Notes under the pieces: model-generated | Told to the model about the DNA's origin: nothing | The model's database searches: none | The model's input: only the letters and a program-made list of their open reading frames with translations | Virus record (IMG/VR): IMGVR_UViG_3300030107_004497 | Length of the DNA stretch: 64,000 nucleotides | Source of the DNA: an uncultured virus (IMG/VR IMGVR_UViG_3300030107_004497) | Taxonomy: Duplodnaviria; Heunggongvirae; Uroviricota; Caudoviricetes; Crassvirales | Direction: 5' to 3' (one strand) | Position numbers and translations under genes: made by a program | Shown here: positions 1 through 48,792 of the stretch, piece by piece | Layout: every line of letters begins with the position of its first letter | Position numbering within the stretch: the first letter of the stretch is position 1

Positions 1-1607
1 AAATTTTGAAATTTAACTTTAAGCACTTTAACTTTTGTTGTTTTTGCTTCGTAGTCTCTATGTACCAATAATCCATGGTAACTAGCATCGTACCATTCAC
101 CACCTCCTTTGATATTGTACATTGTTGGTTCTTCAATTTTTCCATCTTGTCCTTTATACATTTTAGTTGGGTGTGCAACAATAAACGTTAACACATCATA
201 TTTTTTACAAAAAGTTTCAATTTTAGCTAAGTAATCCATTGTATAACGGTTTACATCATCTGACACTGCGTTTGTATCTCTAATCTTATTAAATGGATCA
301 ATAACTAAACATTTAATACCTTTACGTTTAACTAGCTCAGCGCCTTTACGTAATACAGATTCTAAGCTATATTTATCCATATCAATAAAGAAATAATTAT
401 CATTAACATGGTTTGCAACTTCTTTCCACTTATTACCTCCAATATCTCCTGGTGATGGCATATCCTGCCATGTTTTTCTCATTAATTTATGAGCATGAAG
501 ATATACTGGTTGATTCTCTGGGCTAGCATAAGCAGTTTTCCAGCCATATAGGTTATTATACCCCACAACCATTTGATCAACAAAATCAGACTTGCCGCTA
601 CTAGGAATCCCAGTGACAGTAATAAACTGACCAGTATATGTAGAAAATATTTTATCAAAGTTTTTAAGCCCGATTTGAAATCCAGGTTTGAAACCGTTTT
701 TAACAAAGTCTCTAAGTTCATCTTCAACGTCTTTTAAGGTTGATACATTTTCCAGTGGCACAGGTCTTGCGGTGTGTATAGCATTTTTAAGTGCATCAGC
801 ACCGTGTTCTAATAAGAAATCGTTTGCGTCTTTGTTACCATTAAAATCTATAAGATAACATACTTCTGCTCCTAAACGTCTAACAAGTTCTCGTTGTAAC
901 ATTTGACCTGGTTCATCTTGATCTACCGCTAGAATTATTCTTGTCTTGTCGTCAAAATAATCAATACAATTGTCTAAGTAATCTAAATTGTTATTATTTA
1001 ACGTAGCACCGTTGGGTACTGATACAGCGTTTGGTATTCCAGCTTCATGTAATGCTAAAACATCCATTTCACCTTCAACTATAACACAAGTATCATAACC
1101 CACGATACTATTAATATTGTAAAATACTTTTTCAGCACCTTTATAAAGTTTAAAGTTTTTTCTACCATCTCTATATTTTACATTGATCAACTGATCACCT
1201 ATAAAATAATTAAATTGAATAGTATTTTCTTTCTTTCCTGTTTGAGGCATAAACTCAGGGCCTTCAGTAACCTGAAGATCTCTAAGTGTTTGCTTTGATA
1301 TACCTCTTGTACCAAACCACGTTTCAACATTCGTACTTACCTCATTAAATTGTTCTGGTGTTTCAGGTCTTACATAAACTCTTTCACTAGAACCTTTACG
1401 TTGATAAGTGTGAAGTTGAAAAGTAGTATTACAGTTGTGACAGGTGCCGAGACCACGTTCCCAATCATAGCTAGCACATTGTGCTTTCTGATTTTTAGGT
1501 TTCCTAGTATGAGAACATAAAGGACAAACTCCTTGTGTAGCTTTCTCTTTTAGGTTGTATTGATTAAACTTGTCAATCAAGAATCCATTGATCTCCTCTG
1601 TATTCAT
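1..1607 (-). CDS. Primase-helicase, T7 gp4/Twinkle type (runs off left edge)
   Basis: Not in ORF track; translated by hand from ATG at 1607. Zn-binding CPLCSH...CHNC, TOPRIM IVEGEMD and AVDQDEPG, KDAND, Walker A TGIPSSGKS, Walker B LVIDPFN, VAHP. Confidence 0.93.
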   Translation of the reverse strand, partial: MNTEEINGFLIDKFNQYNLKEKATQGVCPLCSHTRKPKNQKAQCASYDWERGLGTCHNCNTTFQLHTYQRKGSSERVYVRPETPEQFNEVSTNVETWFGTRGISKQTLRDLQVTEGPEFMPQTGKKENTIQFNYFIGDQLINVKYRDGRKNFKLYKGAEKVFYNINSIVGYDTCVIVEGEMDVLALHEAGIPNAVSVPNGATLNNNNLDYLDNCIDYFDDKTRIILAVDQDEPGQMLQRELVRRLGAEVCYLIDFNGNKDANDFLLEHGADALKNAIHTARPVPLENVSTLKDVEDELRDFVKNGFKPGFQIGLKNFDKIFSTYTGQFITVTGIPSSGKSDFVDQMVVGYNNLYGWKTAYASPENQPVYLHAHKLMRKTWQDMPSPGDIGGNKWKEVANHVNDNYFFIDMDKYSLESVLRKGAELVKRKGIKCLVIDPFNKIRDTNAVSDDVNRYTMDYLAKIETFCKKYDVLTFIVAHPTKMYKGQDGKIEEPTMYNIKGGGEWYDASYHGLLVHRDYEAKTTKVKVLKVKFQN

Positions 1608-3420: not shown

Positions 3421-3431
3421 TATAATTACAC
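3421..3431 (-). promoter_or_regulatory. Candidate middle/late promoter core GTGTAATTATA
   Basis: Intergenic, upstream of the recombination/replication block; similar cores at 12558, 48782 and 60726. Confidence 0.4.
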
Positions 3432-3458: not shown

Positions 3459-4220
3459 TTACAGGTAGTCAATCACTTGCGAGTGGTCTACATTATCTAT
3501 TAATTTCTGTACAGCTTGCTTTTTTAATTGTGAAACTCTAACATAAGCGCCACTTCCTTCAATGTTTAAATAGCCTGCTATTTCTTTAGCAGAATGCTTA
3601 TCACAATCAAGTCCATAACTCAATCTTAATACATGAAATTCTTTATCTGTTAAATGTTGTTTTAACAAAGCTGTTAAATATATATTTAAGAATTCTTGAT
3701 TATATGGTTCTGATTTATCTTCAATTTGTAAAAATAAATCATCATCTTCTCTAGTTCCAGAATCAATACTTAAAAATATAGAATTAAAAAACATTGCAAC
3801 TGCTTTTTTATCTTTACCAAAGTTTTTACGTATACTATTTGTAACGTGTTCTGGTAATCTCATTTGTCCTCTATTAATGTCAATAGCTCTACGTATACCA
3901 CCTTTTATTCTTTTAGATAAAAATGATTTCATAGTTTTTTCTTTGTCTTCAGATTCTTCCATTTTTTCCCAATCAATACGATCAACTGCTTTTATTAAGT
4001 TTAAACTTCCCTCTTGAATTAAATCGTTTATACTCATCACGCCACAGGCTTGTTGAGATGTAGCAAATTTTCTAGCTATATTTTCTACTAATGGCATGAA
4101 TAAAGTTACTAATGTATCCCTATCATATAAAGAATAATGTTCTTTAATTTTAATTCGTTTAATTGTTTCTTCTAAATCTTTTTTATATCTAATGTAATTC
4201 TGTATATTATAACTTTTCAT
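3459..4220 (-). CDS. Phage-encoded sigma70-family RNA polymerase sigma factor
   Basis: Region 2 (PLVENIARKF, DLIQEGSLNLIKAVDR, IRRAI...MRLP) and region 4 HTH (LTDKEFHVLRLSYGL, KEIAGYL, RVSQLKKQAVQKL). Confidence 0.9.
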   Translation of the reverse strand: MKSYNIQNYIRYKKDLEETIKRIKIKEHYSLYDRDTLVTLFMPLVENIARKFATSQQACGVMSINDLIQEGSLNLIKAVDRIDWEKMEESEDKEKTMKSFLSKRIKGGIRRAIDINRGQMRLPEHVTNSIRKNFGKDKKAVAMFFNSIFLSIDSGTREDDDLFLQIEDKSEPYNQEFLNIYLTALLKQHLTDKEFHVLRLSYGLDCDKHSAKEIAGYLNIEGSGAYVRVSQLKKQAVQKLIDNVDHSQVIDYL

Positions 4221-4576
4221 TTATTTAATTTTTCGTTAATTCTTTCTTGTATTATCAATCTATCTTTGTATGTTGGTTGGTAATGATTCATCAACTCTTT
4301 TGGTACGTTATCCCAAGCTGAACTATAGTTTTGCACATTAAATCCTCTTTTTATACATTCTATATATAATTTCCAATATCTATTTTTAAGATATAATAAT
4401 TTGTTATAGAAGAACTTAACATGACCTGTACCTAGTTTAAATTCATCAGGTATTCCATTCATATTATACTTACCTTTAGCAATACAGTTTGGTATACGTT
4501 TTATTTCTCTATGTTCAGCTATTAAATGTTGATTAGTTAATTCAGCTGGTGGTATTCCCACGTTTATTCTAGTCAT
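4217..4576 (-). CDS. denV: Pyrimidine-dimer DNA glycosylase / endonuclease V (start MTRIN at 4576)
   Basis: MTRIN...L..QHL.AE.RE..R and F.LG.GHV.FFY.KL.YL match T4 DenV; ATGA overlap with upstream gene. Confidence 0.92.
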   Translation of the reverse strand: MTRINVGIPPAELTNQHLIAEHREIKRIPNCIAKGKYNMNGIPDEFKLGTGHVKFFYNKLLYLKNRYWKLYIECIKRGFNVQNYSSAWDNVPKELMNHYQPTYKDRLIIQERINEKLNK

Positions 4577-5190
4577 AATTGTTGGTTTAATAATTCTTTT
4601 TCTCGTTTTAAATCTGTACACATATTTCTATGTATAGTTCTTGTTGATACATTTAAATGTAATGCTAATCTTTTTATAGTTATCTTTCTACCACTATCAT
4701 TTACTGATAACATTAAATCATATATATCACTTTGTGTTACACTTTTAGATCTACCTATTAATTGTCCTACAATACGTAATTTTTCTTCTTTACACATTCT
4801 ATTAAATGGTTTAAATATAACTTTACGTAATTTATTCTTTGGCGGTTCATCTAAATCTAACATAGATACTTCATATACTATTTTACGTAATAATTCTGCA
4901 TGTATAACAAACGAAACAAAACCATTTGGTTTATGACATATAACTTCTGCTAATCTCATAAACTTATCTTGATCTAAATCTGGATTAAGATACCACAAAA
5001 CTAATAAATGCCACTTAAGTGATTTGTATGTAGTTATCTTAGCTGATGATCTAAATAGTTCATAACATTCATGCGTACCATTTAAATAAAACATATATAC
5101 TTCATTCTCTTGATCTGGTTTATCTGTTATTGGTAACCTACGATATATTATTCTATTATCATTTAAATATTTAAGGTTTCTATGTGACAT
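4573..5190 (-). CDS. DNA-binding protein with C-terminal HTH (possible replication initiator or regulator)
   Basis: KITIKRLALHLNVSTRTIHRNM helix-turn-helix; inverted repeat overlaps its start codon. Confidence 0.65.
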   Translation of the reverse strand: MSHRNLKYLNDNRIIYRRLPITDKPDQENEVYMFYLNGTHECYELFRSSAKITTYKSLKWHLLVLWYLNPDLDQDKFMRLAEVICHKPNGFVSFVIHAELLRKIVYEVSMLDLDEPPKNKLRKVIFKPFNRMCKEEKLRIVGQLIGRSKSVTQSDIYDLMLSVNDSGRKITIKRLALHLNVSTRTIHRNMCTDLKREKELLNQQL

Positions 5191-5228
5191 TAGCCTGTTA
5201 CTCTTTATCTTTAGGGGCTGTTGTCACA
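5183..5228. promoter_or_regulatory. Inverted-repeat operator-like site, copy 1
   Basis: TGTGACATTAGCC-N20-GGCTGTTGTCACA; left arm shared with 12488-12530. Confidence 0.65.
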
Positions 5229-6615: not shown

Positions 6616-6647
6616 TATTATCCTTAGTCATTTGTATTCTCTTTGTA
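6616..6647 (-). promoter_or_regulatory. Early promoter-like motif, copy 1
   Basis: TACAA-N4-AATACAA-N8-GGATAATA with exact spacing. Confidence 0.75.
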
Positions 6648-6980
6648 TTTATCAATTAGTTTTTGTGGTTCACCTACAAATATACATTCAAAGTCATCGC
6701 CATTACCCATACCTTCAAATATACTAATCCATGTGGTTTTACCTGGTGTTTGCCATATATAATATACGTATTCTAAATCGCCATGCCTAGTGTCTAGATA
6801 TTCTATTTCCCATCCCTCTACCTTCATTGAATCTAATAGTGATTCAGCTATTTCTACACCTAATCCTTCTGGATAGCCATCACTGTGGTTGTAGAACTGC
6901 GCGTGTATAGCATTTGGGTGTTCATTAAAGCTTACACCAGTTTCTCTTGTTGCAAATCTAATTTGTGCTCTTGTACTCAT
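6624..6980 (-). CDS. Conserved phage hypothetical protein
   Basis: MSTR...YNHSDGYPEGLG...HGDLEYVY, a motif pattern common in phage early proteins. Confidence 0.75.
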   Translation of the reverse strand: MSTRAQIRFATRETGVSFNEHPNAIHAQFYNHSDGYPEGLGVEIAESLLDSMKVEGWEIEYLDTRHGDLEYVYYIWQTPGKTTWISIFEGMGNGDDFECIFVGEPQKLIDKYKENTND

Positions 6981-7555
6981 ATATTTATTGTTTTATAAAA
7001 CATTACAAATACTTCTCTACCTTGTTTCCATGATTTGTTTGGGTATTTACTATGAAAGTAATTAGCAGGGTAAGATATTGCTCTGTTTTGGTTATATCCT
7101 ATTACACTATCAAGAGTCCACATATCTAAGTTTTCAGACTCTTTTAATATCATTCTATCAAATTCTTTATCAGTTATATTATCTGGTAATGATTTACCAT
7201 AAGTTTTGTGTCTCCATAAAGCTGTACCATGTAACTCATTTATTTTTCTTGGAGATATATATAATACTAAAGCTCTATCTGGTTGTTGACCTTCTATTTT
7301 TAGATCACTATGTATTCTCCAATTAGTATCTAATACATTATTTGAAACTCTAAAAAAACTAAGTATAGGTTCTACTATGTTACCTTCTAAAGTACTTAAA
7401 CTGCCACTCACATGATTAATAAATGGTTGGGTAGCTTGTTGTATATAAAAAGATTTACCTGGAGTTTTAAGCTCTTGATAATCTTGAGTTGATAAATCTT
7501 TTATTGTTTCATCTAATATATAATTAGGCAAGAAATCGTCTATAAAATATATCAT
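6977..7555 (-). CDS. 2OG-Fe(II) oxygenase-like protein
   Basis: IDDFLP, IHSD (HxD), GTALW, NRAISYPANYFHS, R..FVMF. Confidence 0.75.
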   Translation of the reverse strand: MIYFIDDFLPNYILDETIKDLSTQDYQELKTPGKSFYIQQATQPFINHVSGSLSTLEGNIVEPILSFFRVSNNVLDTNWRIHSDLKIEGQQPDRALVLYISPRKINELHGTALWRHKTYGKSLPDNITDKEFDRMILKESENLDMWTLDSVIGYNQNRAISYPANYFHSKYPNKSWKQGREVFVMFYKTINI

Positions 7556-7650
7556 TCTTCATCATCTTTAAATGTTGGTGCAAAATATGCTTCTAATACA
7601 CAAATAGTCATTAAAATTATATATAAAATTGCAAATAGTTTTATTGTCAT
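7552..7650 (-). CDS. Small membrane protein, 32 aa
   Basis: Hand-translated MTIKLFAILYIILMTICVLEAYFAPTFKDDEE. Confidence 0.5.
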   Translation of the reverse strand: MTIKLFAILYIILMTICVLEAYFAPTFKDDEE

Positions 7651-7652
7651 AA

Positions 7653-7904
7653 TTAATCTAATAAGTCCATATAGGCGTTAATATTATTTTTAGAAAACCA
7701 TCTTAAACCTTTGTGAAAGTCATCTAACATTTTATCATTTTGCATTCCCATATCAAAACACATTTGTGCTCCCGTAATAAAGTCATACATAGATAGTTCA
7801 ACAGCGGTTAATTCAACTTCTACTCCTGTAAAAGGATTTGATACAGTATCTCCTTCTTCATATAACGCGCCGTTAAACCAATCTGGTAATTTTTGTTTTT
7901 TCAT
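7653..7904 (-). CDS. Hypothetical protein
   Basis: ORF track; operon-packed. Confidence 0.75.
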   Translation of the reverse strand: MKKQKLPDWFNGALYEEGDTVSNPFTGVEVELTAVELSMYDFITGAQMCFDMGMQNDKMLDDFHKGLRWFSKNNINAYMDLLD

Positions 7905-8173
7905 AATTCTAATTTTTCATATTTATAATAATACTCTTGTACTGTTTGTATTATATGTCTACCTGTTGCAGTGTGAAAACCATAATTATGTGTATGCAAC
8001 AATGGTATTGGATCATTAAAGAATACTAATTTTAAAAAATCCTGAGCTTTATAATGACCAAACTTGTAGGCCGCATCATTACAAGCGGCAGCAATACAAT
8101 TAGGACAATGTCTTAGCTCTTCATCTGATCGCCAAGCCATATATTCTTTTACTTTCTTAGTTGTTAGTTTCAT
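7901..8173 (-). CDS. Hypothetical protein (probable start MKLTTKK)
   Basis: ORF track with adjusted start. Confidence 0.65.
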   Translation of the reverse strand: MKLTTKKVKEYMAWRSDEELRHCPNCIAAACNDAAYKFGHYKAQDFLKLVFFNDPIPLLHTHNYGFHTATGRHIIQTVQEYYYKYEKLEL

Positions 8174-8540
8174 TTGTTTCTTCTTCATCGGTTGGACATT
8201 CAGCTTCTTTAAATAAGTTAAGTACTTTGTCGACAATTTTCTCAGTTAATTCATAAGTCTGTTGAAACTCAAGGCTATTAGCATTAACTCTACCATCATA
8301 ATCTAACTCATATTCTATATGATAGTTATCAGTATCTTCAAAGTCAAAATCATTTACAGCATTCTCAACAGCATTATGAATATCATCTAGTTGAGATGGT
8401 GTTAACTCTGGTTTATTATAGTCATCTAATTGTTTTTGAGTTGACTTCAAATCGTTTTGATACGTGGCACTAAAGTCGTTGTGCTCTTTTATTGCTTTTT
8501 CTAAGCCAGCAATCTTTAGCTCTAAATCTTTTTGGTTCAT
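8157..8540 (-). CDS. Hypothetical acidic/coiled-coil protein
   Basis: ORF track; directly downstream of a promoter motif. Confidence 0.75.
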   Translation of the reverse strand: MNQKDLELKIAGLEKAIKEHNDFSATYQNDLKSTQKQLDDYNKPELTPSQLDDIHNAVENAVNDFDFEDTDNYHIEYELDYDGRVNANSLEFQQTYELTEKIVDKVLNLFKEAECPTDEEETNETNN

Positions 8541-8562
8541 ATTATTTAATTTTATTTGTTTA

Positions 8563-8594
8563 TATTATCCTTCTTTATTTGTATTTAATTTGTA
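8563..8594 (-). promoter_or_regulatory. Early promoter-like motif, copy 2
   Basis: Exact consensus spacing. Confidence 0.8.
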
Positions 8595-8597
8595 ATT

Positions 8598-8675
8598 GTA
8601 GCTAGTGAGGAATCGAACCTCATTGTTTTCAACTCGAGCGCAACCGAGTTTCCTGTATCTCCAGTACCTAGCTTC
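8598..8675 (-). ncRNA. tRNA-like RNA (non-canonical cloverleaf)
   Basis: AGCTAG/CTAGCT acceptor, CTG/CAG D-like arm, AACTCG/CGAGTT arm with 8-nt loop, T-arm TGAGG-TTCGATT-CCTCA; no encoded CCA. Confidence 0.65.
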
Positions 8676-8680
8676 CATAA

Positions 8681-8822
8681 AACGAGGTCGGGCAGGTGTG
8701 GTTCTACCGAGTTTCGGTAAGCCGAGTTTCGGTTTTTGCTTTATCCTGCCGTTCTGCCAAGTGAGTAAGATCACTATCTTATCATGTGTACACATCTCAC
8801 GCGCTACCACCCTCACCTCGTT
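8681..8822 (-). ncRNA. Multibranched structured RNA of unknown class
   Basis: Nested helices 8681-88/8815-22, 8691-96/8745-50, 8761-65/8796-800 plus four hairpins; GC-rich island in AT-rich DNA. Strand inferred from context. Confidence 0.6.
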
Positions 8823-8878
8823 ATTTATACCATATTCCGTACACTTTACACCCATGATGAGTTGTACATAGTAATTTC

Positions 8879-9025
8879 TTATCTTTTATTGGCTTTTCCT
8901 TTAGTAGGCTTTTGTCCCAATATTTTGGATTTTTGCTGTTTAGTTTTTTCTTTTTTGGCATATTCTTCTAAGTTTTTTTCTATATTATTATTATCTTTTA
9001 TAAAATATTCTATTATTCTTTTCAT
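8879..9025 (-). CDS. Basic hypothetical protein, 48 aa (MKRIIEYFIK...)
   Basis: Hand-translated; ATGA overlap with upstream gene. Confidence 0.55.
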   Translation of the reverse strand: MKRIIEYFIKDNNNIEKNLEEYAKKEKTKQQKSKILGQKPTKGKANKR

Positions 9026-9525
9026 GTTACATTATATCTATGTCCGTTAACAATTACTTTTACTTCTGGCTCTTCTTGCCAAACATGTAATTCTTTAGTT
9101 CGTTTTATCTCGTCTTCATGTTCCCACTTGGGTATAAACTCACCACTTGATAGTTTATTAGCATAACCTATGTAATAGTTTTTGAGACAAAAGCTTATTA
9201 AGTATTCCAATCTGTCTTGCTCATTAGGTATTAGTACACAGCTACGGCTTGTAAATTGAGTATATAATGGTCTACCCATACTATCTTTTCTACCTGAGTC
9301 AAAATACTCTGGTTCACCTTCACATCTTTTATTTAGTTGCCAACTCGGGCAATATCCACCTGCTTTAGTACGTCTTACATAACCACTAGCAAAACTAGCT
9401 ACATGTATTTCACCACCATATTGGTCTTTCACTGGTAACTTAAATTCACGCGTACCATTTTTCTTCTGTCTTTTAGTCGTAACTTCTTGGATATCAAGTA
9501 GTTGTAATGTTTCTTTTATATTCAT
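9022..9525 (-). CDS. Hypothetical protein
   Basis: ORF track. Confidence 0.75.
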   Translation of the reverse strand: MNIKETLQLLDIQEVTTKRQKKNGTREFKLPVKDQYGGEIHVASFASGYVRRTKAGGYCPSWQLNKRCEGEPEYFDSGRKDSMGRPLYTQFTSRSCVLIPNEQDRLEYLISFCLKNYYIGYANKLSSGEFIPKWEHEDEIKRTKELHVWQEEPEVKVIVNGHRYNVT

Positions 9526-9526
9526 A

Positions 9527-9718
9527 TTATTGTGCTATGTAAGTAAAACCTTTGTAATTGAACCAACTTGTAATATATGAGTTGCCTTCATTATCTACTT
9601 GACCAAATCTAGTGTCAGCAAGTTGACATATTGTATAAGGTTTATAAGTTATACCATTCAGTTGAATTTTTTGTAAGCCAGTAACTGTGTTTGCTTTTAA
9701 GAATTTAATTGTATTCAT
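9527..9718 (-). CDS. Hypothetical protein (probable start MNTIKF)
   Basis: ORF track; start adjusted to lie downstream of the promoter motif. Confidence 0.65.
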   Translation of the reverse strand: MNTIKFLKANTVTGLQKIQLNGITYKPYTICQLADTRFGQVDNEGNSYITSWFNYKGFTYIAQ

Positions 9719-9729
9719 ATTTTTATTTT

Positions 9730-9761
9730 TATTATCCATTAGTTATTGTATTTATTTTGTA
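9730..9761 (-). promoter_or_regulatory. Early promoter-like motif, copy 3
   Basis: Exact consensus spacing. Confidence 0.8.
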
Positions 9762-9762
9762 A

Positions 9763-9939
9763 TTAAGGCGTGATTATTTCTGGATTATCATGTACCATCC
9801 ACTCGCAATTAGCTAAATTATGACCAACACTAGTTAAAAACTCTTCTATTGATTCATAATCAGGATTCCAATTATCTTTACCTACTTCATATTGAAACAC
9901 TTTACCTGTTTCGAAATCTAATACTGTTATATATTTCAT
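9763..9939 (-). CDS. Hypothetical protein, 58 aa (MKYITVLDFETGKV...)
   Basis: Hand-translated. Confidence 0.65.
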   Translation of the reverse strand: MKYITVLDFETGKVFQYEVGKDNWNPDYESIEEFLTSVGHNLANCEWMVHDNPEIITP

Positions 9940-9954
9940 ATCTATTATTTACTA

Positions 9955-10164
9955 TTATCCTAACATTGTACCATAACCTTTACGACGAGTTAACTTAGCT
10001 ATGCGCGCAGCATCACTGCTTGACATAATCTGTATGGAATTTCCGGTTTTATGGTTTATAAGTGGAGCACAACCATATTGTTCGGTCGTGGAGCAGTTTA
10101 CACACACTTTGTAGCCAAGTTTAACTCGTTGCTTAGGTATTATATTTTTACATTTACATATCAT
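9955..10164 (-). CDS. C4 zinc-finger protein (DksA/TraR-finger-like)
   Basis: CKC..IP.QR...G...CVNC pattern. Confidence 0.6.
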   Translation of the reverse strand: MICKCKNIIPKQRVKLGYKVCVNCSTTEQYGCAPLINHKTGNSIQIMSSSDAARIAKLTRRKGYGTMLG

Positions 10165-10171
10165 TCGTATA

Positions 10172-10203
10172 TATTATCCATTAGTAATTGTATTTGTTTT
10201 GTA
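10172..10203 (-). promoter_or_regulatory. Early promoter-like motif, copy 4
   Basis: Exact consensus spacing. Confidence 0.8.
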
Positions 10204-10283
10204 TTACTCTTCTTCATATTCTTCACATAATTTACTTAATATCATTGCTGATATGTATATTAATACAAACCATTCACCCATAA

Positions 10284-10616
10284 TTATTCTTTTATTTCTA
10301 TTCTAAATGGACCAAGTTTACTAAAATACATATTATCTTTACTTTTTAATGTATCTATAGATGTTTTTCCATTTGGATAAGTTGTTATTACCACTCTATT
10401 TCTATCTATTTTGTCATATAACCATAAATTTAGTACATTATTTTCATTTATTTGAGTAAAAAATGATTTTTTATACTTATATTCTCTGATCAAGTGACCA
10501 GTTTTATAGTTCCATTCAAAAACTGTATTGCCTTTAATAGCAATTCTAGAAGTATCTTGCGCATTTGAGCACAAAATACTTGCTATCAATCCTATACTTA
10601 ATGTTATTTTCTTCAT
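10284..10616 (-). CDS. Secreted hypothetical protein
   Basis: Signal peptide MKKITLSIGLIASILCSNA-Q (Gln after cleavage is typical of Bacteroidota). Confidence 0.7.
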   Translation of the reverse strand: MKKITLSIGLIASILCSNAQDTSRIAIKGNTVFEWNYKTGHLIREYKYKKSFFTQINENNVLNLWLYDKIDRNRVVITTYPNGKTSIDTLKSKDNMYFSKLGPFRIEIKE

Positions 10617-10619
10617 AAT

Positions 10620-10826
10620 TTAGTCAATTTCATCACAATTCTCGCAATCAGGAGCATATTCTTGAGCAACTAACTCATAATATTCTTCTTCTGTTAAGTT
10701 TTCGTGTATTGCTTCTGTTTCTTCATAGTCATAATTACTTGAATAAGCTGGACAAGGTAAGTAATTAGTACTTGTACAACTTGTTAATCCGAGCGCTATT
10801 AACGCTATTCCTGCTGTTTTTTTCAT
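10620..10826 (-). CDS. Small lipoprotein
   Basis: MKK + hydrophobic stretch + LTSC lipobox; acidic mature part. Confidence 0.7.
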   Translation of the reverse strand: MKKTAGIALIALGLTSCTSTNYLPCPAYSSNYDYEETEAIHENLTEEEYYELVAQEYAPDCENCDEID

Positions 10827-10918
10827 AATTTTTTATTTAATTTAGTTAATATTCTGTTGTTCCGTTTTTTTCAGCTAATTCTTCTAGCCATTTATCAAAT
10901 TCTTCCATAATTTATTGT

Positions 10919-11191
10919 TTAATCTAATCCATCTCGGTGATTTCCTCTACTATCTGTAAAGCGAAGTCCACTCTTTTTCTCTAATTCTATCATATTAGCA
11001 ATAGCATTTGCCATTAAATCTTCTTCTGGTTCTACTTCATTTGACCATATTTCTTCAGCTTGTCTTTCAATATCATCTATTATATATGATTTGAAGAAAC
11101 CTAAGTGATGTTCTTGACCGAAACTATCTTCAACGTGAATACTATAATGAGTATTACCTTGATATTTATTTATACTGATTTTTCTAGGCAT
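10919..11191 (-). CDS. Hypothetical protein
   Basis: ORF track. Confidence 0.7.
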   Translation of the reverse strand: MPRKISINKYQGNTHYSIHVEDSFGQEHHLGFFKSYIIDDIERQAEEIWSNEVEPEEDLMANAIANMIELEKKSGLRFTDSRGNHRDGLD

Positions 11192-11335
11192 AATTTACTT
11201 GTTTAAATATCCACTCATAACATTCTGATTTACTTTTATGGCTGAATAGTATTTGTTGTGAGTGTGTCTGAAATACTATAAATAGTTTACCATTTTTTAA
11301 AAATTTTATCTTCATAATTTATTTGTTTACATAAT

Positions 11336-11367
11336 TATTATCCAATACTAGTTGTATTTAGTTTGTA
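11336..11367 (-). promoter_or_regulatory. Early promoter-like motif, copy 5
   Basis: Exact consensus spacing. Confidence 0.8.
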
Positions 11368-11496
11368 TTACTTTATAGTTAAAGTTATTAATTCAAATTC
11401 ATCATTAGTAATTAATCCACTTAATAAACCTAAGTATTCTGTACTAATATCTCTACCTGTTATTTTACTTTTTATCATCATAACTTTATATTTTTA

Positions 11497-11634
11497 GTTG
11501 TAGTGTGAGAATCGAACTCACATTAACCATTACTACATTTTGTCATTCGTATTATTTATACACATTAAATGTTACTCAACGCTGTGTTTATCGTGAATAC
11601 TAGAAGAGCTACAAATCCGCTAATATACACTACA
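11497..11634 (-). ncRNA. Second tRNA-like RNA (T-arm plus acceptor mimic)
   Basis: GTGAG-TTCGATT-CTCAC T-arm followed by ACTACA, which can pair with TGTAGT at 11532-37 or 11629-34. Confidence 0.5.
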
Positions 11635-11677
11635 TTGATTACAATTTCAAAGTAGTGATTGAACTTTTGCTTATTCA

Positions 11678-11920
11678 TTACACTAACTTTTTATCTCTCA
11701 ATACTACTGGAATATTGTTAGTTGCAGTGTAACTTTTGTATTTTTGAAAGCAAGCTAATTTACTTAATGTATCTTTCATAAGTGAATACACTTTGTCATG
11801 ATTATAAGTACAAGTTTTACCATTTTTAAAGTTAACTGTAATTACTGCATTTTTACCGATTAAAGATTTTCTTACTACGAATCTTTTACTTGTTAATTGA
11901 TTTTGATTTTTCTTTGACAT
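11678..11920 (-). CDS. Basic hypothetical protein, first gene of the left arm
   Basis: ORF track; downstream of a promoter motif. Confidence 0.75.
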   Translation of the reverse strand: MSKKNQNQLTSKRFVVRKSLIGKNAVITVNFKNGKTCTYNHDKVYSLMKDTLSKLACFQKYKSYTATNNIPVVLRDKKLV

Positions 11921-11959
11921 AATTTTGTTATTTAGTTATTAATTTATTTTAGTTATTAT

Positions 11960-11991
11960 TATTATCCATTATTAGTTGTATTTACATTGTA
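11960..11991 (-). promoter_or_regulatory. Early promoter-like motif, copy 6
   Basis: Exact consensus spacing. Confidence 0.8.
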
Positions 11992-12096
11992 TTAAAGTAA
12001 GTACTTTGTTTAGTTGTATTATGAGCTACCACTGCTACTCCGCGCACTCTCATTGCTCGCGACACAATTACTATTTATATTTAGTATTTACATTTA

Positions 12097-12128
12097 TATT
12101 ATCCAAATGATATTGTATTGCAATTGTA
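12097..12128 (-). promoter_or_regulatory. Early promoter-like motif, copy 7
   Basis: Exact consensus spacing. Confidence 0.8.
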
Positions 12129-12256
12129 TTAGTTGTTTATTAGTGTATACAATACAAATGTGAATAAACATGCATTAGTTATTAAATAAGTGTAGTTGAT
12201 AATTGTTTCGAAGTTTTTCATTTTATTATATTTTATATTGTTATTACTTACATTGT

Positions 12257-12288
12257 TATTATCCAAATTAGTTTGTATTATAATTGTG
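12257..12288 (-). promoter_or_regulatory. Early promoter-like motif, copy 8
   Basis: CACAA-N4-AATACAA-N8-GGATAATA (one mismatch). Confidence 0.75.
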
Positions 12289-12308
12289 AGTGCGAATGAC
12301 AGTGTAGA

Positions 12309-12340
12309 TACAGAATGAATACGCTCGAACGTGGATAATA
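12309..12340 (+). promoter_or_regulatory. Divergent (rightward) variant of the promoter motif, copy 9
   Basis: TACAG-AATG-AATACGC-TCGAACGT-GGATAATA; same spacing, three mismatches. Confidence 0.6.
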
Positions 12341-12425
12341 TGGATATAAAGAAAAACGGAAAACAAAACGACGGAAACGTGGACGAAGGAGGTGGGGCCC
12401 GTAAAACTTTTGCAATTCCCCAGGA

Positions 12426-12450
12426 GGGGGAGGGGTAGAGGGGAGGGGGG
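12426..12450 (+). other. G-quadruplex-forming tract
   Basis: G5-A-G4-TAGA-G4-A-G6, the only such tract noticed in the window. Confidence 0.8.
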
Positions 12451-12487
12451 CAACACGGTACCCCAAAATTTATAATATTTTTTTTTA

Positions 12488-12530
12488 TGACATTAGCCTA
12501 TTAAGAATACCTAGTAACTAGCTAGTGTCA
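12488..12530. promoter_or_regulatory. Inverted-repeat operator-like site, copy 2
   Basis: TGACATTAGC-N23-GCTAGTGTCA; shares TGACATTAGCCT.TTA with 5185-5200. Confidence 0.65.
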
Positions 12531-12596
12531 CACTCTCGCTTAAATATACTTTTTTACCTGTAATAATAGAAAGTATAGTATGAGAAAATAAAAGAG

Positions 12597-12824
12597 ATGC
12601 CTCAAAAATTATCACCATCAGCAAGGAGAAGGAAATTAGCTAGAGATTTAGCTTATGCTAAAACTCCTAGTAGAAGAGCTAAGAAAGCTGAGAATCAAAG
12701 ATTACGTAGAGCAGCTAAAAAAAGAGGTATAAACTTAGATGGAAAAGACTTCGATCATACTAGAAATAAATTTGTTTCCGTTAAAGCTAATAGAGGTGGA
12801 CACGGAAAAGGAACAAAAACATAA
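12597..12824 (+). CDS. Small basic protein with minimal HNH-like motif
   Basis: Arg-rich helix followed by DGKDFDH...S.KANR. Confidence 0.55.
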   Translation: MPQKLSPSARRRKLARDLAYAKTPSRRAKKAENQRLRRAAKKRGINLDGKDFDHTRNKFVSVKANRGGHGKGTKT

Positions 12825-12828
12825 GATT

Positions 12829-13689
12829 ATGCCAGATCCAAAAAAACTAATGAAGAAACAAATCCAGGATGACCCTGGTAGCAAGTACGATCCTAGCAAG
12901 GATTACGAAGGTCCTGAATTAAGGGATTTTACTGGAGATCCTACCACTAAAGGTACTCACTTTGAAAAACCAGTTAACCTAACTAAGAGCTCAGGTCTTG
13001 GTCCAAGAAGTTCTTTTGGTGGTGTTAACAATCCTGAGTTAACAAAAACTAAAGAAGGTAAACACAAAAAAGTAATGGTAGATGGACCTAAAAATAAAAT
13101 GCACCAAAGCAAACCAACTCAATATGCTCCATTTAAAATGGCAGCCGCTGATCATGGTAATAGTCCTATAGAGAAAAATTATGGAACACCTGCTCAAAGA
13201 GGTTTTAATGTCGGTGGACTTATAGGTGGTGTTCAAGGTAAACCACAAGCTAAAACTGGTGTTGGTTCTAGTCTAAACATGGGAGCATCTGTTGGTAGTT
13301 CGCCAAATAAATTTTGGAAAAAAATGAAAAAGAAAGCTAGAAAAATGCTAGGTATGGATAAAGTTGCTGATGTAATTAAAAATGTAACAGGAATGGGTGG
13401 TGACGATCCAGCTGCGGCTGAAGGAGCTGTTGCTGGAGTTGGTCAACCAGCGGAAGGTAGTGTACCGATGCATGGTGAAGAATCTCACACTGGAGGTGCT
13501 GGACCTGTCGGAGATGGTGGTAAACAGTTAGCCGCTTCAGGTGAAATGCCACAAGGTGCATCTATGATGGCTCAATATGCCCGAGCCCAACAAGCTCAAC
13601 GTGCAAAAGAGAAAAACGTGCTTGGAGGTGGTCCCGGAGGTACGATGTGGGGTGGAATAGGAGACATGGCGTCACGTGCAATGGTTTAA
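12829..13689 (+). CDS. Low-complexity Gly/Lys-rich protein (putative internal virion protein)
   Basis: Start MPDPK; contains PFKM...NSPIEK and SSPNK. Confidence 0.6.
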   Translation: MPDPKKLMKKQIQDDPGSKYDPSKDYEGPELRDFTGDPTTKGTHFEKPVNLTKSSGLGPRSSFGGVNNPELTKTKEGKHKKVMVDGPKNKMHQSKPTQYAPFKMAAADHGNSPIEKNYGTPAQRGFNVGGLIGGVQGKPQAKTGVGSSLNMGASVGSSPNKFWKKMKKKARKMLGMDKVADVIKNVTGMGGDDPAAAEGAVAGVGQPAEGSVPMHGEESHTGGAGPVGDGGKQLAASGEMPQGASMMAQYARAQQAQRAKEKNVLGGGPGGTMWGGIGDMASRAMV

Positions 13690-13700
13690 AAAAAACATAT

Positions 13701-15242
13701 ATGGCATTTAAAATGAAAGGACCAGGACTACCTGGATTTAGAAAACAACAAGGAACTGGATTTTATAAAATGAATCCTCTTAATAGCAAGAGATCTCCTA
13801 TGCTTCAAGGTGAAGATGATTCTGAATCTTCAGGTAATTGGGATGAGCATGGTTATTCTGACGCTGAGATAGCCAAAATGCAAAAAGAATATATGGATCT
13901 TTCAGAAGAAGAAAGAAAAGCAATACCTTTTGATCAATTTTTCTACAAAAACTATACCGAAAGACAAGGTGACCAAGTAAGAAAAATTAAAGAAACATTA
14001 AAAATAGCTAATATACCAGGTGATAAAGATGATGATTATGATGGTAGTGGAGGATATATGCCTGACGATGAATGGGAAGCGTGGTTAGAAACTGACCCTG
14101 GAAAAGAGTATTTGAAAAAATATGGTCCTAAACAAGTAGCGGTAAAAGATATAGATATAGAAGAAATAAATATCAAACCTAAAGATGATGTAGAGATGAC
14201 CAACTTTAGGATAGATTTAGCTAGAATAGGTATTGGTACTCATACTGTTAAAACAGACGCAGGTGATGGTTCTTATAGATACCGTGCTTCTGCTAGTGGA
14301 GAGTTAAACCATATAGGAACAGGACAACTATCAGCGGGTGATATACATAAAGGCGTGTTAGAAGGAAAATGGAAATACGAAGTGTTACCAGATGGAACAA
14401 GTACTGGTAATTTATTGATGAGTAAAAATTATTACGAAAACGTACATAAACCAATGGAAGAAATGTACGCGCGTGGTGCGGAGAATATGAATGCTCACGT
14501 AGCAAAAGTTAAAGATATAACTAGTTCTAGAACAAGAAACGCTTGGGTAAAACAAAAAATGGCTGAAGAATATCCTGAGATAAAAGAAAAATCTTGGTTT
14601 AAAGATATATTTGATGGTAAAAGAAACGATGGTGTTACGAAGCAATACGCGGATAAAAGAAACGAATTATCTAGACAATATATGGATGAGCATAGGTTTT
14701 ACTATGACGAAAAAGCAAATGGTTATCAAAGTACTTATGAAGATCCAGCTAACTTTGGACATGTTATGCCTAAAATACTTCCAGATGATGAGGGTTATAA
14801 ACATCATCGTATAGCGCAAGTGGTAAGACCACAAGATTACATGTACAACGAAGAAGAGGGTAAATACGTTTTAAAACCTAACGCTTTAACTTTAGATCCT
14901 CAAGTTTTCAAAAATTTAAGTAGCGAAGAGCAAAGAGAGCACAACGCGGCGTTAGACGCTAGAGATAGACAGCATTCTAACTTTAAAGAAATGAACTGGG
15001 AGGGACCACCAACACCATCGCATTATGCAAACGCTTCTATCTTGGAATATCAAAACATGACAGATGCAGAAAGAAACTCTGAAGCAGGTAGAGAACTGTA
15101 CAAAGACTTACTTTATATGACAGCGGTAAAGGAAAATGATTTAGAATTTAGAAAAAAAGGCAATATAGACACTGATTTTATTGCTGATTCAACTAATGTA
15201 GAAGATATAGAAATAGATGATGACGGAAACGTTATAAGATAA
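13701..15242 (+). CDS. Hypothetical protein with MAFKMKG leader
   Basis: ORF track; start adjusted to 13701. Confidence 0.7.
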   Translation: MAFKMKGPGLPGFRKQQGTGFYKMNPLNSKRSPMLQGEDDSESSGNWDEHGYSDAEIAKMQKEYMDLSEEERKAIPFDQFFYKNYTERQGDQVRKIKETLKIANIPGDKDDDYDGSGGYMPDDEWEAWLETDPGKEYLKKYGPKQVAVKDIDIEEINIKPKDDVEMTNFRIDLARIGIGTHTVKTDAGDGSYRYRASASGELNHIGTGQLSAGDIHKGVLEGKWKYEVLPDGTSTGNLLMSKNYYENVHKPMEEMYARGAENMNAHVAKVKDITSSRTRNAWVKQKMAEEYPEIKEKSWFKDIFDGKRNDGVTKQYADKRNELSRQYMDEHRFYYDEKANGYQSTYEDPANFGHVMPKILPDDEGYKHHRIAQVVRPQDYMYNEEEGKYVLKPNALTLDPQVFKNLSSEEQREHNAALDARDRQHSNFKEMNWEGPPTPSHYANASILEYQNMTDAERNSEAGRELYKDLLYMTAVKENDLEFRKKGNIDTDFIADSTNVEDIEIDDDGNVIR

Positions 15243-16253: not shown

Positions 16254-17825
16254 ATGGAATACAATCAACCTAGCGAGATTGTCAAAGATGTGAACTTTGG
16301 CGATCAAGCTAATAAAAAAATTGTTGCTGGTGTAGAAAAGCTAGCAAAAGCAGTAAAATCAACCTTAGGAGCATCTGGAAAGTGCGTTATATACGAAGAC
16401 GCCAGAGGTCTCCCGGTCATAACAAAAGACGGGGTAACTGTAGCAGAATCAGTTGTCTTATTTGACCCGGTTGAAAATATAGGTGCTACTTTAATTAAAG
16501 AAGCTGCTAAAAATACAGTGAGAGAAGCGGGTGACGGTACTACTACAGCTACTGTCCTTGCTGAATCATTATTAAAAGAAGTTAATAATTACAATAAAGA
16601 TGTAACTATTAGAGAAGTAAAGAACGGTATTAAATCCGGACTTGAAAAAGTAAATGATTACTTAAATGAGGTTTCTGTCAAGATCGAGGGCGATATGCTG
16701 GAATCTGTTAGTTCAATTAGTTGTAATAATGATGAAGAGCTAGGAAAGATTATAGCAGAAGCTTATACTAAAGTAGGTAAAGATGGTGTGGTGTTAATGG
16801 AAGAGTCTCCAACTGAAGAGACATACGTCGAAGTTGTTGACGGCGTGCAGGTCGACTCAGGACTCACATCCCCACATTTTATTACTGATAAGGACAAGCA
16901 AATTTGTGAGCTTGAAAACCCATTAGTATTAGTGGTAACCTCAGAAATACCAAACATAAGGAAAATACAAAAAATACTAGAGTATGTTATAAAAAACAAA
17001 CGCTCTTTATTAATAGTGGCTCCTGTAGAACAACAGGTTAAAGCCGCTTTACTTATGAATAAGGTAAAAGGTAATATTAAAGTTAATATAATTGACTTAC
17101 CAGGCTTTGGTCCCACTAAACAAGATGTATGCGAAGATTTTGCGTTTTTAGTTGGAGCTAAGATAATTAACGAAGAACTTGGTGATGATCTTGATTTAAT
17201 AGATATTGATTGTTTAGGCGAGGCTTACACATCTATAACCGATGATAAGAACACTGTATTAACTATAGATACACCAGGAGAAGAACTTAAAGAAAGAGTT
17301 AAAAATATAAAAAAGCTTATTAAAAAAGAAGATAAAAATCCTTTTTTAAAGAAAAAGCACCAACAAAGATTAGCAATGTTGTCAGGTAGTGTAGGTATGG
17401 TAAAAGTAGGTGCTAATTCTAAAGTTGAGCTTAAAGAAAAGAAAGATAGAATAGAAGATGCTATTTATGCCACAAAAGCAGCTTTAAAAGAAGGGATTGT
17501 CCCTGGTGGTGGAGTTGCTCTTTTAAATGCATCTCAAAAAATTTCAACCGACTCCGTCGGTGAAGAGATACTACTTAGAGCTATAACAGCTCCTTTCCAT
17601 ACTATACTAGCAAACGCTGGTTTAGAACAAACAGCACCAAGACCTGGTAAAGGATTAGGTGTAGATGTTGTAACGGGAGAAGATGTTGATATGATTAAGT
17701 CTGGTATTATTGATCCAGTACTTGTAACTAAATCAGCGCTTAAAAATGCAGTAAGTGTTGTTTCAACTATAATATCTGCGGATTGTGTAATTTCAAATAT
17801 GAGAATGAATGAAAGCAATCAATAG
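16254..17825 (+). CDS. groEL: Chaperonin GroEL (Cpn60)
   Basis: TKDGVTVA, AGDGTTTATVLA, PGFG, KKDRIEDA, EGIVPGGG, GIIDP; no GGM tail. Confidence 0.97.
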   Translation: MEYNQPSEIVKDVNFGDQANKKIVAGVEKLAKAVKSTLGASGKCVIYEDARGLPVITKDGVTVAESVVLFDPVENIGATLIKEAAKNTVREAGDGTTTATVLAESLLKEVNNYNKDVTIREVKNGIKSGLEKVNDYLNEVSVKIEGDMLESVSSISCNNDEELGKIIAEAYTKVGKDGVVLMEESPTEETYVEVVDGVQVDSGLTSPHFITDKDKQICELENPLVLVVTSEIPNIRKIQKILEYVIKNKRSLLIVAPVEQQVKAALLMNKVKGNIKVNIIDLPGFGPTKQDVCEDFAFLVGAKIINEELGDDLDLIDIDCLGEAYTSITDDKNTVLTIDTPGEELKERVKNIKKLIKKEDKNPFLKKKHQQRLAMLSGSVGMVKVGANSKVELKEKKDRIEDAIYATKAALKEGIVPGGGVALLNASQKISTDSVGEEILLRAITAPFHTILANAGLEQTAPRPGKGLGVDVVTGEDVDMIKSGIIDPVLVTKSALKNAVSVVSTIISADCVISNMRMNESNQ

Positions 17826-18066
17826 ATATATAATAGTAAGAAATATAAAGACAGAACCTAAAAAGGTTGCTGGTCTTATAATGACGGAAGAAACAGATGT
17901 AGATAACCGTTATATAAAAGCAAATATAATATCGTGTGGTAATCTTGTGGAAGGTTTAAAAGATGGAGATACGATATATTATGATAAACATGCTGGGCAC
18001 GATGTATCATTTAAAGATATTCTTTATAGAGTTATTCGTGATGGCGATGTAGTTTTAATAGATTAA
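17809..18066 (+). CDS. groES: Co-chaperonin GroES (Cpn10)
   Basis: 85 aa, AGLIM mobile loop, GDTIYYDK, VIRDGDV; overlaps the groEL stop. Confidence 0.8.
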   Translation: MKAINRYIIVRNIKTEPKKVAGLIMTEETDVDNRYIKANIISCGNLVEGLKDGDTIYYDKHAGHDVSFKDILYRVIRDGDVVLID

Positions 18067-19790: not shown

Positions 19791-20723
19791 ATGGGACATA
19801 AATTAAGATTTGGAACTTCAAGCGGCACTGGTTATACTAGAGCTAAATTTCCTACGCATCTTGGCGTGGCAAAGGGGCCTTTAAATAAAATGAGTGACTT
19901 TGATTCAACTTTTGCTAGAGAAAGAGATAAGCAAGGTCCTGGTGGAGAGTTTACTTATAAAGGTAAAAGATACACTACAGATAGAGCTGATGATAAAAAA
20001 ACAGCTGTTTCTAGTGCCAAAACAAAAGATAAAGACCAGATACAACAAGATCAAATAAATCTAACCAATAGTTTTTCTACAAGTGGCCCAATAGATACTT
20101 CAAAAGCTCAGAAAAACACTACATTAGTAAAACCTAAAAAAATAGATATAGTTACCACAAATCCAAAAACAGGTAAAAGAGAAAAAATTGGAGAAACAAA
20201 TACTTCTTCAAGACCAGGTGGGTCAGAACCAGTCGTACAAACCCCTGAGGAAAAAAGAGGTATTACAAAAAATGAAATAAAACAAACATCTGGAGGTGGA
20301 AAAGGTAGTAGTAAAAAAGAAGGACCTAGCTTTTTAAACAAACTAGGAGCAGGACTAGAAGAAGCAGGTGCAACAATATCTATGGCTTATGGTAAAGGTG
20401 GTACTGGTACTATGACAACTGCTAATATGGCTTATAAGAAAATGAAAGAAGATCTTAAAACAAAAAGACTTCTTAACGAGAGAAGAGCTTATATGAATAC
20501 TGATGCTGGTAATATGGAACTAGAAGGAAAAGATCCAGTTGAAAAACAAGATGACAAAATGAAAGAAGAAGTTTTTCAAGGTGGTCTTATAGAAAAACAA
20601 AAGCAAGAATCTGACGCTGCAAATCAAGCAATAGTTTCAGAAAACGCTAGTATAGAAAATAGAAGAGACAACAATGCTGGCGCAACAGATTGTCCAGGTG
20701 GAACTTGCCCAGCTTATGAATAA
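19791..20723 (+). CDS. Low-complexity hypothetical protein (putative internal virion protein)
   Basis: ORF track; Lys/Thr/Gly-rich. Confidence 0.65.
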   Translation: MGHKLRFGTSSGTGYTRAKFPTHLGVAKGPLNKMSDFDSTFARERDKQGPGGEFTYKGKRYTTDRADDKKTAVSSAKTKDKDQIQQDQINLTNSFSTSGPIDTSKAQKNTTLVKPKKIDIVTTNPKTGKREKIGETNTSSRPGGSEPVVQTPEEKRGITKNEIKQTSGGGKGSSKKEGPSFLNKLGAGLEEAGATISMAYGKGGTGTMTTANMAYKKMKEDLKTKRLLNERRAYMNTDAGNMELEGKDPVEKQDDKMKEEVFQGGLIEKQKQESDAANQAIVSENASIENRRDNNAGATDCPGGTCPAYE

Positions 20724-24846: not shown

Positions 24847-25042
24847 TGTAGGTAGAGATTATAAGAACGATGCGATGCATTATGCTGTTGGTCAAGAAGT
24901 TTACGGTGGACATACTATTTGTGATATATTAGAAGAAAAAGACAAGTACTCGATATATATAAAAAAAGATAAAGATGTTTTACCTTGGAAAGACTTTAAC
25001 AAAAATATGGCATTATCTATAGAATATAATCTTGAATACTAA
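24821..25042 (+). CDS. Conserved small phage protein
   Basis: IRKISVGRDYKNDAMHYAVGQ. Confidence 0.75.
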   Translation: MAKLIRKISVGRDYKNDAMHYAVGQEVYGGHTICDILEEKDKYSIYIKKDKDVLPWKDFNKNMALSIEYNLEY

Positions 25043-25632
25043 TGAAAAGTGTTTACAACTTTGTTGTAAAACCAAAAGGAGAGAGATATAATAATAAAAA
25101 AAAGATTGGAGATTCAGAGTTAATACTTAACACTGAAATCTTCAACCATCAATATGTTAATAGAGAAGCTATTGTTATATCAACACCTGTTATTGGTGAT
25201 ACAAATATAAAACCAGGAGATACGGTTATAGTACATCATAATGTATTTCGTAGATGGCACAATGTTTATGGTGTTGAAAAAAATAGTAAAAGTTTTTTTG
25301 ACGAATCTACTTATATTGTAAATTATGATCAAATCTTTTTATATAAAAGATATAACGATTGGGTAACACCAAGTGGTTATTGTTTTATAAAACCTTTAAA
25401 AGCTATTGATCAATTTAATATTGAATCTGAAAAACCACTTCAAGGTATTATTAAGTATTCTGATGGTACTTTTGAAAAAGAAGAATTGGTAGGTTTTACA
25501 CCAAATAGCGAATATGAATTTATAATCGACAACGAAAGATTATATAGAGTTTATACTAAATTTATTACAATTAAATATGAATACCAAGGAAACGAAGAAG
25601 AATATAATCCAAGCTGGGCGCAAGGCAGTTGA
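25042..25632 (+). CDS. Tandem GroES-like domain protein
   Basis: Two repeats of a GroES-like pattern: FVVKP...IKPGDTVIVHHN and CFIKP...EELVGF...YEF.I...RLYR. Confidence 0.55.
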   Translation: MKSVYNFVVKPKGERYNNKKKIGDSELILNTEIFNHQYVNREAIVISTPVIGDTNIKPGDTVIVHHNVFRRWHNVYGVEKNSKSFFDESTYIVNYDQIFLYKRYNDWVTPSGYCFIKPLKAIDQFNIESEKPLQGIIKYSDGTFEKEELVGFTPNSEYEFIIDNERLYRVYTKFITIKYEYQGNEEEYNPSWAQGS

Positions 25633-25855
25633 CGAGCTAATTAAAGTTGCAGAAGAAAAAATTATTACTAATACTGAAGACGATGTATCAGCTGATAGAT
25701 TAAAAAATGCCGCAGCTACTAAAAAACTAGCTATATTTGACGCATTTGAAATACTTAACAGAATTCAAGAAGAAGAAAACTTGCTTGAGGGCAAAACACC
25801 TGAAAAGACAGAGAAAAAAGCTTTTAAAGGATTCGCAGAAGGTAGATCTAAGTAA
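25577..25855 (+). CDS. Probable terminase small subunit
   Basis: Helical 92-aa protein coupled (TAATG) to the terminase large subunit. Confidence 0.55.
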   Translation: MNTKETKKNIIQAGRKAVDELIKVAEEKIITNTEDDVSADRLKNAAATKKLAIFDAFEILNRIQEEENLLEGKTPEKTEKKAFKGFAEGRSK

Positions 25856-48781: not shown

Positions 48782-48792
48782 GTGTAACTATT
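48782..48792 (+). promoter_or_regulatory. Candidate late promoter core GTGTAACTATT
   Basis: Intergenic; resembles 3421-3431. Confidence 0.4.

Follow-up and report, generated by a model that had tools for sequence, protein, structure and literature searches.

A divergent strand switch in an uncultured marine podophage probably carries a short direct terminal repeat and its packaging signal

The divergent strand switch of an uncultured virus assigned to Crassvirales is probably the end of its chromosome, formed by a short direct terminal repeat (DTR) together with the packaging signal of that repeat. We analyzed a 64,000-nt stretch of DNA (referred to as the window; IMG/VR record IMGVR_UViG_3300030107_004497), in which a sequence-only reading had placed a transcription-primed, G-quadruplex (G4)-dependent replication origin at positions 12257-12530, with a packaging or terminal-repeat signal as the alternative. 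The alternative is supported by a step in contig depth, as opposed to read ends, and by positional analogy to the end of Tenacibaculum phage Gundel_1. The structure is most likely of a known kind, a short DTR, and not a mitochondria-style replication start.

The gene content of the window fits the phi38:1-related group 2, marine putative Flavobacteriaceae phages that often carry GroEL (PMC5332604). The virus is a marine podophage with relatives among Flavobacteriia phages and an inferred host. It also encodes GroEL/GroES, a sigma factor, and a portal protein. A T7-like RNA polymerase was not detected in the window, which encodes the sigma factor instead, and one regular-expression search of four large late proteins found no DxDxD-type RNA polymerase motif. 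The GroEL, GroES, and second GroES-like genes lie at 16254-18066 and 25042-25632, upstream of the terminase gene. The region 40215-46628 encodes a 2137-aa virion protein with a weak match to the C-terminus of the crAssvirus muzzle protein (E = 2e-4, below the cut-off).

Every feature listed in the sequence-only reading is present and beyond chance. The features of the switch and of the genes discussed below are as follows.

1-1607, minus strand: TOPRIM/DnaB-like (gp4/Twinkle-type) primase-helicase gene, running off the window
4573-5190, minus strand: gene for a 205-aa protein with a three-helix bundle (weakly PriCT-like) and a C-terminal helix-turn-helix (HTH), candidate binder of the inverted repeat
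5185-5226, minus strand: second inverted-repeat copy, over the HTH start codon, facing left (29 of 32 loci)
12097-12128 and 11960-11991, minus strand: further leftward promoter-motif copies from the motif scan, with five others down to 6616
12000-12462, no strand: inferred short DTR, ~0.42-0.48 kb, from contig depth and positional analogy to the Gundel_1 DTR
12257-12288, minus strand: leftward early-type phage promoter motif (motif scan)
12309-12340, plus strand: rightward copy of this motif (motif scan), not conserved
12394-12411, plus strand: box 1 (G4-CCC), then an A-tract/T-tract; no other part of the end signal is conserved as deeply (alignment consensus)
12426-12450, plus strand: G4-capable tract G5AG4TAGAG4AG6, with broad conservation confined to its last G5-6 run
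12445-12462, plus strand: box 2 (GGGGG-Y-W-ACAC plus ~6 nt), aligned by eye with the Gundel_1 DTR end
12478-12486, plus strand: T9 run, variable among relatives
12488-12530, plus strand: inverted repeat TGACA-n-TAG...AGTA...CTA-n-YGTCA, directional and oriented toward the late genes, a probable promoter-operator
12559-12568, plus strand: YGTRANHAT motif, candidate late-promoter element (33 of 42 relatives vs a background rate of 0.02)
12597-12824, plus strand: first rightward gene, encoding 75 aa, homologous to a phi38:1/Calle protein annotated as structural
25855-28071, plus strand: large terminase subunit gene, related to those of Elemovirus, Pervagoviridae, and Pachyviridae

The back-to-back promoter motifs proposed at the switch are both real. 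The motif TACA-N5-AATAC-N10-RGATAATA has nine matches with at most one mismatch in the 64-kb window (0.01 expected), eight of them leftward (6647 to 12288) and one rightward at 12309-12340. A generic sigma-70 scan of the window showed no excess (23 found vs 24.7 expected), so the promoter motif is phage-specific and not of the TTGACA/TATAAT type. The proposed G-tract is exact and is the only canonical G4 pattern in the 64 kb; its G4Hunter score of 3.08, compared with 1.36 for the next best tract in the window, exceeds the maximum of 2.44 over 200 block shuffles. The T9 is the longest T-run in the window, the inverted repeat does recur at the HTH gene, and the Twinkle/gp4-type enzyme is a TOPRIM plus DnaB-like primase-helicase (phrog_239, E = 1.5e-81, and Pfam). 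As claimed, gene directions diverge from the site, and the cumulative GC skew has its minimum close to the switch, at 12104 (AT skew minimum at 12287).

The DTR is supported by depth, which was taken from 4 of the 20 runs containing the stretch, as one mean figure per assembled contig and not from raw reads. Eight long pieces were listed for each run, and in all four runs the contig extending from ~11,800/12,050 to 12,475/12,487 exceeded the other seven in depth (83 vs 41-61, 6.5 vs 3.0-4.2, 33.5 vs 15-25, and 32.2 vs 2.2-5.2). Relative to the median of those seven, its depth was 1.63-, 1.81-, 1.89-, and 7.83-fold. Doubled coverage over 200-700 bp is the standard signature of a short DTR (PMC5000459), and the same reasoning has been applied to crAssphage (PMC10983915). 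Contig-level depth was close to twofold in three of the four runs; assuming a twofold repeat, these three give lengths of 446, 422, and 480 bp. The pieces directly to the right were near background depth (49 in run X1 from 12479 and 21 in run X3 from 12446), placing the right border at ~12,430-12,510. The left border falls at ~11,950-12,050, and both borders are approximate. The GC content of the deep interval (0.29-0.32) is within the range of its flanks (0.28-0.39), which rules out GC bias as the cause of the step. Run X1 may be the source sample, and runs X1 to X3 may represent one campaign. In the fourth run (X10), the interval 12047-12487 reached 7.8 times the depth of its flanks, far over the twofold expected for a terminal repeat, with an end-biased library, free terminal fragments, or nascent strands as candidate causes.

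Contig ends bear on the same question less sharply. Among 64 viral contigs, 33 end within 1 kb on the early side of the site and 1 on the late side, compared with 3.7 expected. Eighty of the 118 loci gathered by pattern from metagenomes had flanks and were used for this analysis; 50 of these contigs end within 900 nt upstream and 23 downstream. Three end within 25 nt downstream (at 7, 16, and 22 nt), one of them 7 nt past ACAC. No sharp peak was found in either set, the ends of the viral contigs being spread over 15-1011 nt. We treat the excess as weak support for this reason and because a variable, repeat-rich early region would give the same result. Hypervariability of the early region and the selection of viral contigs could explain the early/late asymmetry. 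One contig of 62,309 bp carries the element at each end; it was set aside, as the two ends share only a 144-nt overlap, which we read as an assembly overlap.

These data also bear on a reading in which the site is nothing more than a divergent promoter region. Mixing of strains would then have produced the depth step artifactually, and the genome would be circularly permuted or have its ends elsewhere. The metagenomes contain several strains, and strains that share k-mers could inflate contig depth; the depth values are contig means, and the contig ends form no sharp peak. We nevertheless consider this reading very unlikely, since the same interval is raised in four of four runs and is not better conserved between strains than its flanks (in X3, 14 differences in 534 nt of the deep interval vs 32 in 1,089 nt of flank). 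It also leaves the match to the end of Gundel_1 unexplained.

Gundel_1 (Pachyviridae, MT732474) has a 322-bp short DTR, a PhageTerm prediction that is not experimentally verified (PMC8776804), and this DTR sits at the divergent strand switch of its genome. The two sites are alike in several ways: both lie at a divergent switch from which early genes read inward from the end, both carry a G6 run with an A-tract at ~60 nt from the end (in Gundel_1, a C6/G6 run lies 55 nt inside, then the A-tract), and the terminases and portals are homologous. The repeat here is longer (~0.45 kb, an estimate), its spacer is ~12 nt longer and G-rich, the replication module differs, and a TGACA inverted repeat flanks the end, unlike in the parts of Gundel_1 that were scanned. 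The motif site in Gundel_1 coincides with the predicted end of its repeat. By alignment with that end, we predict that the terminase of our phage cuts after ~12,462.

A similar motif, with its order of elements judged by eye, lies at the strand switch of six related genomes (Gundel_1, ElemoA, Panino, phi18:3, phi38:1, and MW202828). By eye, the site ends in ATACT or CTACT in five of the six and in ATAGT in phi38:1. We scanned these genomes, five of them in part, using a family HMM built without the inverted repeat. The switch site ranked first in phi38:1, MW202828, and ElemoA, second in phi18:3, and third/fourth in Gundel_1; in Panino it was outside the top four. The matches are weak (E = 0.011-22 across the six genomes), and that in Elemo is in reverse orientation. 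At the Gundel_1 end, the by-eye alignment with box 2 is consistent, and the HMM score is not significant. The terminase of the window matches 87 records, nearly all from Flavobacteriia phages, with identities of 62% (MW202828), 45% (Elemovirus), 42% (Panino), 39% (Calle and phi38:1), 39% (phi18:3), and only 32% (Gundel_1 TerL, E = 3e-91, the ends of Gundel_1 being themselves predicted). A gp4-type helicase was matched in phi38:1 and Panino, with no match in Gundel_1, phi18:3, or MW202828. Because these last three share the terminase and have no helicase match, the motif appears to follow the packaging module. The Panino paper contains nothing on termini, the literature searched yielded no mapped ends for Elemo, phi38:1, phi18:3, or Panino, and the titles and abstract openings covered (subscription papers were largely outside this scope) yielded no description of the end motif or of ends.

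To characterize the signal in uncultured relatives, two proteins served as search anchors (79 and 32 loci), and pattern searches supplied further sets (64, 59, and 118 loci). Their common layout is a G/C box, an A-tract with TTT, a spacer of ~25 nt, GGGGG-Y-W-ACAC, CCC, an AT-rich stretch, and the inverted repeat. HMM matches were obtained in 21 of the 32 HTH-anchored loci, and the box 1 region matched in relatives down to 36% HTH identity; the same site was matched in the related phage genomes. Pairing of the G-box with CCCC is visible by eye in some relatives. A conserved hairpin or noncoding RNA was considered and rejected, as DNA folding of 12380-12540 gave no unusual stability (z = 0.36). 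An Rfam scan of 9000-14000 had no matches, and ARAGORN called no tRNA genes. In the early region, two tRNA T-loop-like motifs GTTCGATTC lie in hairpin-like context at 11509-11517 and 8610-8618 (-), compared with 0.29 expected, and no tRNA was called. Summed depth is high near 11438-11571, which suggests an element common to many phages.

The CSB II element of mitochondria and plasmid ColE1 are RNA-primed origins, and our phage has a promoter, a G-tract, and a T-run in the same order, in this one genome. The corresponding origin here would be primed by a transcript from 12309-12340 that crosses the G-tract, forms a G4-stabilized R-loop, and ends at the T9. The order is real, and the nearest clade keeps its G-richness (G4Hunter of at least 1.5 in 8 of the 10 loci with at least 74% HTH identity). 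However, none of the three elements is conserved among relatives. With this promoter type alone scanned, a leftward motif lies within 400 nt of the site in 52 of 75 relatives and a rightward motif in 5 of 75. A T-run of at least 8 occurs in 13 of 72. The G-tract failed the conservation check proposed along with it: the canonical four-tract G4 is present at 3 of 30 protein-anchored sites (a nonredundant set, 35 before deduplication, that includes the window and leaves loci without a site in range uncounted). At these 30 sites, G4Hunter was at least 2 in 5 and below 1.2 in 16. Larger fractions, 9 of 42 and 17 of 88 loci, came from two sets selected for G-runs. Among the 10 near loci, G4Hunter ranged from 1.2 to 2.8 with three canonical G4s, and among 11 more distant HTH-anchored loci it ranged from 0.04 to 2.0 with none. 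G-richness is thus a clade trait, and the site does not need a quadruplex; we read the G4-capable tract as this clade's own G-rich form of a spacer. The end site persists in relatives with AT-rich spacers and in phages without a detected gp4-type helicase, and our phage has its own TOPRIM DNA primase. A transcription-primed, G4-dependent origin is accordingly highly improbable.

For the terminal repeat, we propose the following mechanism. The ~0.45 kb from roughly 12,000 to 12,462 would be present at both ends of the virion DNA, with a G/C box, an A/T tract, a G-rich stretch, and an ACAC box forming a conserved signal at its late-side border. The terminase would probably recognize this signal and cut near 12,462, and the repeat would be duplicated at packaging. 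The end made by this cut would begin with the C-rich strand and the early promoters firing into the early genes, much as the early promoters of T7 at the entering end fire into its early genes. Recombination or concatemerization of the ends would then place the repeat between the divergent early and late blocks, which would account for the strand switch as well as for the skew minimum. Directly beyond the DTR, the inverted repeat would act as a separate, directional promoter-operator for the late genes, bound by the HTH protein.

In phages of the T7/T3 type, an exact short repeat is duplicated at maturation (PMC5000459), and packaging specificity resides near the termini; terminase is recruited by a pause of the polymerase at the concatemer junction (PMC3276506). 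Short-DTR packaging and a gp4-type helicase would be common to these phages and ours. In contrast to T7, the gene blocks here are on opposite strands, a sigma factor is encoded with no T7-like RNA polymerase detected in the window, and there is no conservation of the rightward promoter, which could fill the T7 role. By analogy, the rightward promoter, G-tract, and T9 could serve a terminase-recruiting pause in this phage; their poor conservation argues against a general role of this kind. The closest analogue for a G4 at such a site is herpesvirus pac1, in which a T-rich core is flanked by G-rich runs near the cut and can form a G4 (PMC13595911). A T-rich core flanked by G-runs is also present here, next to a predicted cut. 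G4 capacity is conserved across herpesviruses, whereas here it is limited to one clade, and the likeness may be convergent.

The inverted repeat spans 42-45 bp in relatives and lies within 130 nt past box 2 in 105 of 133 loci. The two copies in the window have 12 identical nucleotides in common. Copies at the end face right in 31 of 32 cases and copies at the HTH gene face left in 26 of 27, so that the repeat faces along downstream transcription at both kinds of site. A promoter-operator is the likelier reading of the repeat and an initiator site the less likely one; the HTH protein probably binds the repeat and is autoregulated. In the left-facing copy, AGTA precedes the HTH ATG by ~7 nt, a spacing that would suit a leaderless transcript. 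Elsewhere, 10 of 55 copies that are neither at the end nor at the HTH gene lie near early promoters (background 0.10), a weak association. A scan of parts of the Gundel_1, Panino, Elemo, and MW202828 genomes detected no TGACA repeat, which suggests that this repeat is younger than the end motif. In four relatives (L040, L056, L061, and L103), a 22-nt palindrome-like element GGGCGGAGTCTACTCTTCCGA is conserved between paired inverted-repeat copies near the switch; it is absent from the part of the window examined.

The same protein and repeat could instead form a protein-initiated origin, alone or beside the terminal repeat, with which it is compatible. The 205-aa protein would bind the repeat, open the AT-rich/T-run DNA like ColE2 Rep, and load the primase-helicase or prime duplication of the repeat. 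Its structural model is of high quality (pLDDT of 85.8, and 92.8 for the N-terminal domain), and structure search identifies the C-terminus as a plain HTH. The layout of helical bundle, linker, and HTH is that of ColE2-P9 Rep, with weak likeness in fold: among the 50 matches listed for the bundle, six are primase helix-bundle or Rep structures (Z = 4.3-4.9), including ColE2-P9 Rep (3vw4; Z = 4.9, rmsd 6.8, 74 residues aligned). A BFVD search with the helical domain returned prim-pol matches (probability 0.92, E = 0.22). The Elemo gene directly beside the end motif encodes a homologue of the helical domain (E = 1.1e-5), MW202828 has iteron-like repeats at the same place, the skew minimum and divergent genes suit an origin, and the 7.8-fold excess in X10 could represent short nascent strands. 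For crAssphage, the predicted origin lies where the gene block on the forward strand begins (PMC10983915).

Against this, unrelated bundles score up to Z = 6.0, so that the primase and Rep matches are tied with them and all fold scores are below 6.1. The 205-aa protein shows no catalytic primase domain and no sequence match to ColE9 Rep or to the replication proteins of Panino and Elemo, and the palindromic, directional site differs from that of ColE2-P9. The orientation of the repeat toward downstream transcription at both kinds of site is promoter-like, and skew follows the coding strand anyway. We therefore consider a protein-initiated origin unlikely. Searches with the HTH protein gave only generic HTH matches among PDB sequences and folds and only unnamed or HTH clusters in the Atlas; tblastn found no match in cultured phages. 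HTH-type genes adjoin the end motif in ElemoA (L181, 20173-21039) and Panino (L180, 26040-26435). In MW202828 (L113, 22620-22810), an array of ATCGACATA-like repeats with similar half-sites occupies the place where relatives of the window have the inverted repeat.

A more elaborate version of the terminal-repeat reading would combine these elements: a G4 would fold on the displaced strand of the G-rich spacer when the repeat is duplicated or cut, making it the phage equivalent of the pac1 G4, a catalytically stripped ColE2-Rep-like PriCT plus HTH protein on the inverted repeat would open the DNA, and the G/C box with the A/T-tract would be a packaging signal common to Pachyviridae, Pervagoviridae, Elemovirus, and uncultured relatives. 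We regard this combination as quite unlikely to hold in full. Under the preferred reading, a short DTR with its packaging signal, chromosome ends can be predicted at base level in a large group of uncultured marine phages; a search with the HTH protein alone scored at least 8,000 candidates. Ends are also predicted for the culturable relatives Elemo (ElemoA_7-9A, near 20,011), phi38:1 (near 34,405), phi18:3 (near 23,221), and Panino (near 76,918), in the coordinates of their records. If the end motif is common to these families, it would define the terminase signal and allow assemblies to be oriented. Use of a G4 by the G-rich clade, if real, would connect the packaging signals of phages with those of herpesviruses.

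On the late side of the site, the YGTRANHAT motif lies 22-57 nt past the inverted repeat in 33 of 42 loci. Further copies in intergenic-looking positions occur at 3430 (-), before the start of the ERF gene, and at 48783 (+), before the gene at 48813; these are candidate promoters for the phage sigma factor (3459-4220).
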